Shown here piece by piece: positions 16,224 to 22,400 of a DNA stretch of 64,000 bases (position 1 is the stretch's first letter; each line of letters starts with the position of its first letter). The notes under the pieces were generated by a model, which ran no database searches, was not told the DNA's origin, and saw only the letters and a list, made by a program, of their open reading frames with translations. The translations under genes were made by a program, and so were the position numbers. Location of the stretch: NCBI RefSeq assembly GCF_054482595.1, contig NZ_CM137008.1. One strand, written 5' to 3'.

Positions 16224-17234
16224 ATGAAGGCTGCAGTTGTTACGAAGGATCATCATGTTGACGTTACGGATAAAACACTGCGCTCACTGAAACATGGCGA
16301 AGCCCTGCTGAAAATGGAGTGTTGTGGTGTATGTCATACCGATCTTCATGTTAAGAATGGCGATTTTGGTGACAAAACCGGCGTAATTCTGGGCCATGAA
16401 GGCATCGGTGTGGTGGCAGAAGTGGGTCCAGGTGTCACCTCATTAAAACCAGGCGATCGTGCCAGCGTGGCGTGGTTTTACGAAGGATGCGGTCATTGCG
16501 AATACTGTAACAGTGGTAACGAAACGCTCTGCCGTTCAGTTAAAAATGCCGGATACAGCGTTGATGGCGGGATGGCGGAAGAGTGCATCGTGGTCGCCGA
16601 TTACGCGGTAAAAGTGCCAGATGGTCTGGACTCGGCGGCGGCCAGCAGCATTACCTGTGCGGGGGTCACCACCTACAAAGCCGTTAAGCTGTCAAAAATT
16701 CGTCCCGGGCAGTGGATTGCTATCTACGGTCTTGGCGGTCTGGGTAACCTTGCCCTGCAATACGCGAAGAATGTCTTTAACGCGAAAGTGATCGCCATTG
16801 ATGTCAATGATGAGCAGTTAAAACTGGCAACCGAAATGGGTGCAGATTTAGCGATTAACTCACGCACCGAAGACGCCGCCAAAATTGTGCAGGAGAAAAC
16901 CGGTGGCGCTCACGCTGCGGTGGTAACAGCGGTAGCTAAAGCTGCGTTTAACTCGGCAGTTGATGCTGTCCGTGCAGGTGGGCGTGTTGTGGCAGTCGGT
17001 CTGCCGCCGGAGTCTATGAGCCTGGATATCCCACGCCTTGTGCTGGATGGCATTGAAGTGGTCGGTTCGCTGGTCGGCACGCGCCAGGATCTAACCGAAG
17101 CCTTCCAGTTTGCCGCCGAAGGCAAAGTGGTGCCGAAAGTCGCCCTGCGTCCGTTAGCGGACATCAACACCATCTTTACCGAGATGGAAGAAGGCAAAAT
17201 CCGTGGCCGAATGGTGATTGATTTCCGCCGCTAA
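16224..17234 (+). CDS. adhP: Alcohol dehydrogenase AdhP (zinc-dependent, propanol-preferring)
   Basis: ORF 16194-17234; start placed at [11 protein letters not shown] to give 336 aa; GHEGIG zinc-ADH signature. Confidence 0.9.
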
Positions 17235-17380
17235 GAGGCCTTTGCTGCGACTGCCAGTCCTGGTGTCGCAGCATCGCACACTCTCCAACATGAAATGGCT
17301 AAATGGATTATTGTTGCGTAGGAAGGAACAATAATGATAGTGTTCCCAGAGAAGGAACGCTACTGAGAGTAAAGACACTA

Positions 17381-17665
17381 ATGAAAATGGCCAATCATCC
17401 CCGCCCGGGGGACATTATTCAGGAATCACTGGACGAACTTAATGTCAGCCTGCGCGAGTTTGCCAGAGCAATGGAAATTGCGCCCTCAACGGCAAGCCGA
17501 TTGCTGACCGGAAAAGCAGCTTTGACGCCAGAAATGGCAATTAAACTTTCCGTGGTGATCGGCAGTTCGCCGCAAATGTGGCTGAATCTGCAAAACGCCT
17601 GGAGTCTGGCAGAGGCTGAAAAAACGGTGGATGTGTCACGATTACGCCGTCTGGTTACGCAATAA
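17381..17665 (+). CDS. yddM: XRE-family HTH protein YddM (HigA-like antitoxin homolog)
   Basis: 94-aa product [31 protein letters not shown]… within ORF 17303-17665; HTH pattern. Confidence 0.75.
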
Positions 17666-17718
17666 AAAAATGGCACCTTATAAAGCGCCATTTGAAACTG
17701 ATGACAAACGCAACATTG

Positions 17719-17830
17719 CCTGATGCGCTACGCTTATCAGGCCTACACGTTCACTGCAATCTATTGGATTTGAACGGTTTGTAGGCCGGATAAGGCGTTC
17801 ACGCCGCATCCGGCATGAACAAAGCCTACG
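17719..17830. repeat. BIME with two REP palindromic units
   Basis: gcctgatgcgctacgcttatcaggcctac and gtaggccggataaggcgttcacgccgcatccggca, typical E. coli REP sequences. Confidence 0.85.
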
Positions 17831-17844
17831 TTGTCTACAATATG

Positions 17845-17873
17845 AAAATGGCGCTTCTTATAGCGCCATTTTC
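17845..17873. terminator. Bidirectional hairpin terminator between yddM and fdnI
   Basis: aaaatggcgct…agcgccatttt inverted repeat flanked by A/T runs on both sides. Confidence 0.6.
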
Positions 17874-17893
17874 AGCTTAAAGTTCAAAAGAGA

Positions 17894-19436: not shown

Positions 19437-22400
19437 TTACGCCTTCTCGATGTTGACTAAGAACGCTTTATATTCCGGCGTTTGCGAGTTTGCATCACCG
19501 ACATTCGGCGTCAGAGTGTTAGCGATATAACCTTTACGCGCGACACCCTCAAAGCCCCAGTGGATTGGAATACCCACCGTTTCAACCTGCTGACCATTTA
19601 CATTCAGTGGTTTCAGACGACGCGTTACCACAGCCACCGCGCGGATAAAGCCACGCTTGCTTGAGACAGTGACACGATCGCCATTATTAATGCCTTTCGC
19701 CGCCGCCAGCGTTTCGCTGATTTCCACAAACTGTTCCGGCTGAGCAATTGCGTTGAGCAATGCGTGCTTGGTCCAGGTGTGGAAGTGCTCGGTCAGACGA
19801 TAGGTCGTACCCACATACGGGAACTGCTCTTTTTTACCCATCCGCAGTGCGTCTTGTTCATACAGACGAACAACCGGGTTAGACACCACGTTCGGATGCA
19901 GCGGGTTAGTGCCCAGCGGCGTTTCAATCGGCTCGTAGTGTTCCGGGAACGGACCTTCCGCCATTTTGTTGATGGCAAACAGGCGTCCCATCCCTTCCGG
20001 CTGCATGATAAACGGCCCGGTTGGCGTACCCGGTGCGGCATTGCCGAAGTCAGGAATATCGTTACCCGTCCACTTGCTGCCGTTCCACTGGATCAGCATC
20101 CGTTTCGGATCCCACGGTTTACCGTTGATATCCGCCGAAGCACGGTTGTACAGCACGCGACGGTTGAGCGGCCACGCCCAGGCCCATCCCAGCGTATTCC
20201 CCAGACCGGACGGGTCGGAGTTATCGCGGTTAGCCATCTGGTTGCCCTGCTCTGTCCAGCTACCGGTGTAGATCCAGCAAGAAGATGCGGTTGTACCGTC
20301 ATCACGCAGATGCGCAAAGCTACTCAGCAACTGACCTTTCTTCGCAATCAGCACGCCATTAGCATCATAGAGATCTTCCAGCGCATAGCCGTTGTTCTCT
20401 TTAGCTACTTCGTCAGATTGCGGTTCGTGCGGCTGCTTGTAGTTCCAGCTCATCTTCATCAGCGGTTCTACGCCTTTACCACCTTCGGCCTGGTACAGCT
20501 CGCGCAGGTGATGGTAGATACCCGCCAGAATTTCACCGTCGTTACGCGCTTCGCCCGGCGCATCCTGACCTTTCCAGTGCCACTGCAGCCAGCGACCGGA
20601 GTTAGCAATAGAACCATCTTCTTCAGCAAAGCAGGTCGAAGGCAGACGGAATACTTCAGTCTGAATAGACGCCGGATCGACATCGTTCGACTCGCCGTGG
20701 TTCTGCCAGAAGGTTGAGGTTTCAGTCACCAGCGGATCGATAACCACCATGTACTTCAGCTTGCTTAGGCAGCTCACCACTTTGTTTTTGTCCGGGAAGG
20801 ACGCAACCGGGTTAAAGCCCTGGCAGAAATAACCGGTGACTTTGCCTTCATCCATCATGTTGAAATACTTGATGACGTCGTAGGTCTGGTCCCACTTCGG
20901 CAGCCAGTCATAGCCCCAGTTGTTCTCTTTCTGCGCGGCATCGCCATAGAAAGATTTCATCAGGCTAACGAAGAACTTCGGATAGTTGCTCCAGTAGTTC
21001 ACCTGACCAGCCAGCGTCGCTTTCGGCGTGTTCGCTTCCAGATACGACTGCAAATCAACCTGTTTTTCTGACGGCAGCGTCAGATAACCTGGCAGGCTGG
21101 TAGAGAGCAGACCTAAGTCAGTCAGACCCTGAATGTTGGAGTGACCACGCAATGCATTCACGCCGCCACCGGCCATACCCATGTTACCGAGCAGCAACTG
21201 GATCATCGCCATAGTACGGATGTTCTGCGCACCCACGGTGTGCTGCGTCCAGCCCAGCGCGTACAGGAAGGTGGTTGTGCGATTCGGTGCGCTGGTGGAG
21301 GCCAGCACTTCACACACTTTCAGGAAGTCGGCTTTTGGCGTACCACAGATGTTTTCAACAACGTCCGGCGTGTAGCGGGAAACGTGCGCTTTCAGCAGGT
21401 TCCACACACAGCGCGGATGAGTCAGTGTTTCATCGCGTTTCGCATAGCCGTTTTCATCGAACTGATAGTTCCAGGACGATTTATCGTATTGCCGTTTTTC
21501 AGCGTCGTAGCCGCTGAACAGACCGTCTTCGAAAGCAAAATCATCACGCACCAGCAGGCTGGCGTTGGTGTAATGCTTAACGTATTCGGCGTTGATTTTG
21601 TCGTTTTCGATCAGGTAGCGCAAAACGCCAGACAGGAACGTAATGTCCGTACCGGAACGAATAGGTGCGTAAATATCCGCCACAGAAGCGGTACGCGTAA
21701 AACGAGGATCGACAACGATCAAGGTTGCATCGTTGTTGTTTTTCGCTTCCATCGCCCAGCGGAAACCGACGGGATGCGCTTCAGCAGCGTTACCGCCCAT
21801 TACCATTACGACGTTAGCGTTTTTGATATCCACCCAGTGGTTGGTCATCGCACCGCGACCAAATGTTGGAGCAAGACTTGCTACCGTTGGTCCGTGTCAG
21901 ACGCGCGCCTGGTTGTCTACCGCCAGCATCCCGAGGGAGCGGGCAAATTTCTGTGTCAGCATCCCGGTTTCGTTGCTGGCACCGGAGGCACACAGCATAC
22001 CGGTAGAAAGCCAACGGTTTACCGTTACGCCCTGCTCGTTCTTTTCAATAAAGTTAGCGTCACGGTCAGCTTTCATCAGCTTTGCAATACGGGAGAATGC
22101 TTCTTCCCAGCTAATGCGCTGCCATTTGTCAGAACCTGGCGCACGATATTCCGGGTAGCGCAGACGGTTTTCGCTGTTGACGTAATCCAGCAAACCGGCC
22201 CCTTTTGGGCACAGCGCACCACGGCTTACCGGATGATCCGGGTCACCTTCAATGTGATAAATCGCTTCTCTGGCGTTTTTCGCGCCATCACCCAGGCTAT
22301 ACATCAATAGCCCGCAACCTACGGAACAGTATGTGCAGGTGTTACGGATCTCTTTAGCGCGTAATAATTTGTAGTTTCGCGCCTGAGCCAGTGCTTGCTT

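Follow-up and report, generated by a model that had tools for sequence, protein, structure and literature searches.

yddM is an orphan HigA-family antitoxin left by deletion of higB, and probably a toxin-free autorepressor

The window analysed here, a 64-kb stretch of DNA from contig NZ_CM137008.1, holds an orphan antitoxin and no toxin–antitoxin system: its gene yddM (17381–17665, + strand) encodes a HigA-family antitoxin of 94 amino acids with an XRE-type helix-turn-helix DNA-binding domain, and the partner gene, higB, is absent. We therefore regard yddM as the surviving half of a toxin–antitoxin pair, rather than as an unexplained regulator, and consider it very probable that it is an orphan HigA made by deletion, which now represses its own transcription free of toxin through two predicted operators, O1 and O2. 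An old chromosomal higB–higA module, with the toxin gene first, lies between adhP and fdnI, and yddM is its antitoxin half; in the lineage of the window, one deletion removed essentially all of the higB frame and left behind the hig promoter, the two operators and an unchanged yddM. Under the mechanism that we propose, YddM would still be made from the former hig promoter, its dimer would bind O1 and O2 and so repress its own transcription without toxin, and YddM would thus serve on its own as a small DNA-binding protein of the XRE type, which may have other targets on the chromosome.

The family assignment of YddM draws on several independent comparisons. In a profile search, YddM matches the NCBIfam equivalog TIGR02607, antidote_HigA ('HigA family addiction module antitoxin'), end to end, its residues 3–81 falling on profile positions 1–80 of 81, with 93.7 bits (E = 4.5e-27) against a cut-off of 47.7 bits; the N-terminal XRE/Cro-type helix-turn-helix is recognized by Pfam HTH_3 at 39.1 bits (cut-off 23). 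The protein is 100% identical, over 94 of 94 residues, to 'antitoxin HigA' of E. coli CFT073 as crystallized in PDB entries 2ICP/2ICT, and the next PDB matches are again HigA proteins (P. vulgaris 4MCX, P. putida GraA 6F8S and 3TRB). RefSeq names the product 'HigA family addiction module antitoxin', and its annotation gives toxin-bearing, frameshifted and toxin-less strains alike one and the same protein, WP_000781370.1, which is identical in E. albertii. Judged from its sequence, YddM is a bona fide HigA-family antitoxin, as expected by an earlier note on this DNA, which had likened it to HigA as a small XRE-type protein and had named a profile search finding it unrelated to antitoxin families as the outcome that would overturn this view; both profiles instead match above their cut-offs. 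In SCU-482, NRG857c and E. albertii a protein of this very sequence accompanies an intact HigB, and given that identity YddM should still neutralize its cognate toxin if the toxin gene were reacquired.

The gene order around yddM in the window is that of E. coli, maeA-adhP-yddM-fdnI-fdnH-fdnG. The adhP reading frame ends at 17234 and yddM starts at 17381, leaving a spacer of 146 bp (17235–17380), the length that had been given for it before. Translated searches (tblastn) that used as queries Rts1 HigB and the E. coli HigB encoded at the orthologous locus returned only noise, both in this spacer, where the best match had an E value of 0.61 over 4 residues, and in the entire 64-kb window, where the best E value was 0.25. 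The search of 17235–17380 for HigB/RelE-like remnants that the earlier note had proposed thus came back empty, and its two statements, that no HigB-like reading frame lies around yddM and that YddM may be an orphan antitoxin, both stand. A gene placed directly after a co-transcribed higB (PF05015) is one mark of a HigA-family antitoxin; the window lacks this arrangement, and the adjacency of the two genes is found at the orthologous locus elsewhere. Likewise, of the intact toxin and antitoxin that make up a complete type II HigBA module, the window has the antitoxin alone.

Within the spacer, a repeat search places a hairpin, TGCTGCGAC-N13-GTCGCAGCA, directly 3′ of the adhP stop (17243–17273, + strand); in alignments this hairpin forms the left edge of the spacer and is common to toxin-bearing and toxin-less alleles. 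The longest plus-strand reading frame confined to the spacer is 38 aa (17218–17334). A 120-aa frame opening at 17303 was rejected as a true gene: it is merely an upstream extension of yddM through the promoter and operators, and its start is also ruled out by the solved protein, which has 94 aa, and by the toxin-bearing alleles, where the yddM start overlaps the higB stop.

At the same locus in other E. coli, the toxin is in place. In strain SCU-482 a gene of 279 nt lies between adhP and yddM, its stop sharing 1 nt with the yddM start; its 92-aa product scores 64.4 bits against the HigB-like toxin profile PF05015 (cut-off 27), aligns with P. vulgaris Rts1 HigB (4MCT_B) over its full length with an E value of 8e-32, and retains H54, D90, Y91 and H92, which we take to be the catalytic residues of Rts1 HigB. 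Some of the E. coli genomes found with an 801-nt locus query annotate a 'RelE/ParE family toxin' in this position. Of 5426 complete E. coli genomes, 5412 have yddM and 1331 have higB, always in single copy and nearly always beside yddM; the toxin-less promoter haplotype accounts for the other 4081 (5412 minus 1331). This last count comes from blastn; a megablast count of 3024 was discarded as an undercount that missed 1061 genomes with an inverted O1. About 545 of the 1331 higB carriers match, at 99% or more, an allele frameshifted by a 1-nt deletion, which RefSeq annotates as a pseudogene in strain NQ3 and which is typical of ST131 strains such as EC958. In round shares, ~15% of genomes keep higB without the ST131-type frameshift, ~10% have it frameshifted and ~75%, the window among them, have no higB. 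CFT073 belongs with the carriers that have higB beside yddM without the ST131-type frameshift (PMC7232551).

The distribution of the pair beyond E. coli gives the direction of the change. An outgroup scan with one genome per species found higB–yddM upstream of fdnI in E. albertii, whose two proteins match those of E. coli at 100% identity, and likewise in an Escherichia cryptic-clade genome, ~12 Citrobacter species, Pluralibacter, an Enterobacter species and another Enterobacteriaceae genome; the pair is further present in Buttiauxella, Cedecea, Erwinia and Chimaeribacter. Since the pair recurs in these other species and genera, the toxin-bearing state is, on this distribution, ancestral and the toxin-less state of the window derived. 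A comparison with other Enterobacteriaceae, which the earlier note had called for, accordingly finds the toxin retained at the same spot, in the 1331 E. coli genomes and in other genera. Separate losses are seen in Citrobacter: Citrobacter sp. FP75 has only fragments of higB, through internal loss, upstream of an intact yddM homologue (locus L008, 2395–2498), and C. portucalensis has a frameshifted higB (locus L014, 2234–2498). The decay of higB in these two is independent of the loss in E. coli.

Aligned with toxin-bearing alleles, the window and K-12 lack the whole higB reading frame and keep the adhP hairpin, the promoter region and yddM. From these alignments it is essentially certain that a single clean deletion took essentially the entire higB frame and spared the promoter, the operators and the yddM start. 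What remains between O2 and yddM is a leader with the deletion scar, ctactgagagtaaagacacta (17360–17380, + strand), which the same alignments identify as the remainder of the place where the higB leader, the higB frame and the yddM Shine–Dalgarno sequence formerly stood. The junction in the window reads AAAGACACTAATGAA followed by AATGGCC (TAATGAA joined to AATGG). This leader can be aligned to the higB start region, TAATGAA then holding the third codon of higB, ATG, or to the higB 3′ end; the second alignment is the more convincing in O111-type alleles, which read CACTGATGAA here, the last higB codon and stop. Because either end of higB can be aligned, the end-points of the deletion are not fixable to the base, and at most two or three terminal codons are recognizable. 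The suggestion that yddM might stem from a decayed toxin–antitoxin pair therefore holds for its descent from such a pair and fails for the manner of loss, since the frame was cleanly removed here rather than decaying in place; in-situ decay of higB does occur in other lineages, the ST131-like 1-nt frameshift being an example. With higB went the Shine–Dalgarno sequence of yddM (GAGGA), which lies inside the higB 3′ end, and because of its removal the translation of yddM in the toxin-less allele would seem to rest on a poor-looking leader.

The deletion left a promoter region with two predicted palindromic operators. O1, TGTTGC-gtaggaa-GGAACA (17312–17330), is a predicted HigA/YddM site on the grounds of cross-genus conservation; O2, TGTTCC-cagagaa-GGAACg (17341–17359), matches GTTCC-N7-GGAAC exactly. 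Between them, position and cross-genus alignment place the putative −10 hexamer of the former higB–yddM promoter, GATAGT (17336–17341, + strand), 16 nt from a putative −35 hexamer, TTGCGT (17314–17319), which O1 overlaps; the two operators are 29 bp apart, centre to centre, and O2 covers the expected transcription start. In 29 loci retrieved for comparison, the composite of O1 and O2 keeps its position ahead of higB or yddM; in 28 distinct promoters, which represent at least eight genera, its half-sites, TGTTsC/GsAACA, are invariant and the variation falls in the 7-nt spacers and the flanks. The left half of O1 lay outside the search pattern, yet it too is invariant, as TGTT[G/C]C. Palindromic operators are what an autoregulated type II module would be expected to carry, and here two predicted palindromes, conserved across genera, lie at the right position. 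The promoter itself is less distinct: because a scan for consensus sigma-70 promoters called none at threshold in this region, we infer the hexamers from conservation, and they are weak, with 7 of 12 matches to consensus. A SELEX peak of sigma-70 RNA polymerase in the K-12 adhP–yddM spacer is consistent with a promoter so placed (PMC3946193).

The closest characterized counterpart is the Rts1 HigB–HigA system of Proteus vulgaris (4MCT/4MCX, 6CHV, 9CHL), which combines the same two families in the same toxin-first order as the E. coli pair (E = 1e-18 for HigA against YddM, 8e-32 for HigB against E. coli HigB). There, HigA dimers bind two inverted-repeat operators over the −35 and −10 elements of Phig, and HigA alone represses Phig at least as well as the HigB–HigA complex (PMC12266136); because P. 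vulgaris HigA represses alone, an orphan HigA of this type can autoregulate without toxin. The two systems differ in that Rts1 is plasmid-borne with its toxin present, whereas the locus in the window is chromosomal with its toxin absent. Their operators differ too, both in sequence, since the P. vulgaris HigBA complex fails to bind hig DNA of E. coli, and in spacing, which is ~22 bp in P. vulgaris, as read from quoted contact positions (PMC12266136), against 29 bp here.

That yddM is an orphan is itself already known, because RefSeq names its product as an antitoxin, HigA has been crystallized, and a 2020 paper on toxin–antitoxin pairs states the case for K-12 and HS (PMC7232551). The crystallized protein, from CFT073 (Arbing et al. 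2010, as cited in PMC4803016 and PMC6987408), is identical to YddM and comes from the same locus, the difference being that CFT073 has a neighbouring higB and the window does not. The 2020 paper describes in the adherent-invasive strain NRG857c a pair TA20, 'ParE-2/HigA-2', of which K-12 and HS encode the antitoxin partner alone (Bustamante and Vidal 2020, PMC7232551). By its coordinates TA20 is adhP-toxin-yddM-fdnI and so orthologous to the locus in the window; its toxin, labelled ParE there, is a HigB in our analysis (PF05015; E = 8e-32 to 4MCT_B), and the paper gives neither junction, operator nor population frequencies. Added here are the frequencies in 5426 genomes, the polarity from outgroups, the anatomy of the deletion, the cross-genus operator footprint, the purifying selection on yddM, and the divergence of the promoter with the inversion of O1. 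The locus offers a clean natural example of an antitoxin that has outlived its toxin and is still under selection, and it bears on how toxin–antitoxin modules are lost and how their DNA-binding halves are recruited as regulators or as immunity against mobile toxins. The K-12 HigBA pair (YgjN/YgjM) shares the name and the toxin-first order; it differs in its unrelated HigA architecture, with the helix-turn-helix in the C-terminal half (PMC6987408), lies at another locus, fadH–rlmG, and is not the partner of YddM.

The toxin-less haplotype has diverged further than the loss of one gene. Its promoter and leader (17274–17380) are ~66% identical to the E. coli toxin-bearing version, to which even the toxin-bearing promoters of Citrobacter are closer (72–82%), while the flanking yddM is 97.5–99.6% identical across both haplotypes. 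On these identities a simple recent deletion does not explain the promoter; the divergence suggests an old allele in which non-contact bases turned over rapidly, or else import from an unsampled lineage. Among toxin-less alleles the O2 spacer occurs as CAGAGAA, CAGTGAA, TGGTGAA and TGATGAA, and the junction as ACACTA, ACACTG and ATTTTG. In 1061 of the 4081 toxin-less genomes (for example, O111:H8 SF26 and EC93), the 17-bp O1 segment at 17313–17329 is exactly reverse-complemented, GTTGCGTAGGAAGGAAC becoming GTTCCTTCCTACGCAAC, a micro-inversion between the arms of the palindrome (loci L051 and L052, at ~744–760). Strain WP4-S17-ESBL-08 (L049) lacks 29 bp between two GAAGGAAC direct repeats (17322–17358 in the window), a deletion that costs it the putative −10 and turns O1 and O2 into a single fused operator; yddM may have been silenced in this allele. 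Toxin-bearing alleles have, in turn, a segment of ~46 bp upstream of O1, including TTTTGCGAGACGCTTTCCGCAA (773–818 in locus L001; ~17273/17274 in the window), whose core (TTGCG...CGCTTTCC) is conserved between Escherichia and Citrobacter and occurs in no toxin-less allele.

A search for a plasmid source of the divergent promoter yielded nothing beyond chromosomal-type copies from E. coli and a 91-nt fragment on each of two 65-kb plasmids. These two (NZ_CP086392.1 and NZ_MT180434.1; 65,126 bp, conjugative, from E. coli) carry a 98.9% copy of 17270–17360 with no gene annotated there, and a 219-kb plasmid carries the toxin-less spacer together with a HigA gene. E. coli genomes hold no paralogous copy; where a record shows a second 'place', it is the inverted O1 piece.

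It is possible, and we offer this tentatively, that the toxin-less allele, far from being a passive remnant, is an old, selectively maintained 'domesticated' regulator that has lasted in E. coli side by side with the toxin-bearing allele, its promoter and leader having been remodelled after the loss of higB in a way that reset the dosage of YddM, and that YddM now controls host genes or gives immunity to incoming HigB; under this reading, the ~34% divergence, the multi-base junction changes and the micro-inversion of O1 would all be part of that remodelling. A parallel case exists in the same species at ybaQ/higB-1, where the HigA-type regulator is essential only in the clades (B2 and F) that keep the upstream higB-1, and where K-12 and most phylogroups have lost the toxin and retained the antitoxin ybaQ (Rousset et al., bioRxiv 10.1101/2020.05.25.114553). 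That locus is a different one, and ybaQ is a paralogue of yddM (YbaQ, PDB 2EBY, matches YddM with E = 5.6e-9); yddM itself does not appear in bioRxiv 10.1101/2020.05.25.114553. If YddM were indeed such a regulator, the two loci together would suggest that E. coli has repeatedly drawn new transcription factors from HigA antitoxins.

Polymorphism argues that yddM is under constraint. Seven sampled toxin-less alleles have 11 synonymous and 1 non-synonymous polymorphic sites, a pN/pS of ~0.03 over 68 synonymous and 214 non-synonymous sites; the binomial chance of at least 11 synonymous among 12 under neutrality is ~1.5e-6. yddM of the window is 99.6% identical to that of toxin-bearing SCU-482 and 97.9% to that of toxin-less K-12, and because the alleles are thus not sorted by toxin status, recombination must cross the boundary between toxin-bearing and toxin-less genomes. 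Given this recombination, part of the purifying selection on YddM may act in toxin-bearing backgrounds.

What selection acts on is the one point at which another reading, compatible with autorepression by an orphan HigA, parts from it: YddM might be kept for neutralizing HigB that arrives on plasmids, on phages or by recombination with toxin-bearing E. coli. We consider this unlikely, although the purifying selection without a toxin in cis and the identity of YddM to the partnered protein would suit it, an anti-addiction role is commonly discussed for orphan antitoxins (PMC7354431), and relatives of HigB are common on mobile DNA, occurring in 539 plasmid records, 99 of which come from Escherichia, and in Escherichia phage GER2. 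Against it, the identity of mobile HigBs to the cognate toxin does not exceed ~61%, once three E. coli plasmid-labelled records of 93–100% identity are set aside (two without gene annotation at the match, one 4.9 Mb long), and the antitoxin of GER2, the one mobile antitoxin compared, is 51% identical to YddM, its locus being without the YddM operator motif. A mobile HigBA as a close partner in trans was accordingly rejected, the nearest phage pair standing at 61% (HigB) and 51% (HigA).

It is more doubtful still that yddM is a functionless leftover which has so far been neither lost nor inactivated. Strains of K-12 deleted for yddM are viable, as expected with no active cognate toxin left, the gene's own ribosome-binding site went with higB, and rare alleles such as that with the 29-bp deletion have lost an operator and the −10; all three would be in keeping with a relic. 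A relic would hardly, however, be retained in 99.7% of genomes (5412 of 5426), 4081 of them without toxin, nor show the 11:1 excess of synonymous over non-synonymous sites among toxin-less alleles, nor keep its operator half-sites invariant amid fast turnover of the surrounding bases. The protein is, moreover, expressed and DNA-binding in K-12, where ChIP-exo with YddM tagged on the chromosome yielded binding regions and a motif (PMC6237786); new regulatory connections for YddM are also claimed in a CRISPRi/a preprint. Least probable is that a toxin persists, be it as an unrecognized small frame within the spacer or downstream, or at some other place in the genome: small spacer frames such as that of 38 aa do exist and the search covered 64 kb of the genome, but the window has no HigB-like sequence, the spacer frames cross the adhP stop, the hairpin and the operators and are broken in sister alleles by the O1 inversion and substitutions, higB sits in a single place per genome wherever present, nearly always beside yddM, and yddM can be deleted in K-12. 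With yddM read as an orphan autorepressor, we expect it to be dispensable in the window's lineage, as in K-12; this could differ in the ~15% of genomes that have higB without the ST131-type frameshift.

Downstream of yddM, the spacer to fdnI (17666–17893) is REP-rich, as had been noted from the letters, with two REP sequences, a BIME, read at 17718–17815 (~17718–17746 and ~17781–17815), outside the toxin–antitoxin locus. They are flanked by two copies of a terminator-like hairpin found in a terminator scan, the first directly after the yddM stop (17668–17693) and the second at ~17845–17872, and with this spacer in the query, the median number of matching places in an E. coli genome was 39. Lengths of the yddM–fdnI spacer of 50, 228 and 406 bp correspond to 0, 1 and 2 tandem copies of a 178-bp unit made up of the terminator hairpin and two REPs; the window has one copy and K-12 two, and the REPs are absent from strains with the 50-bp spacer. 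Some strains have an IS200 element in this spacer instead. Further along, the fdnG frame (19437–21848, − strand) is listed at only 803 aa, an in-frame stop further upstream interrupting it, presumably the known selenocysteine UGA of formate dehydrogenase-N.
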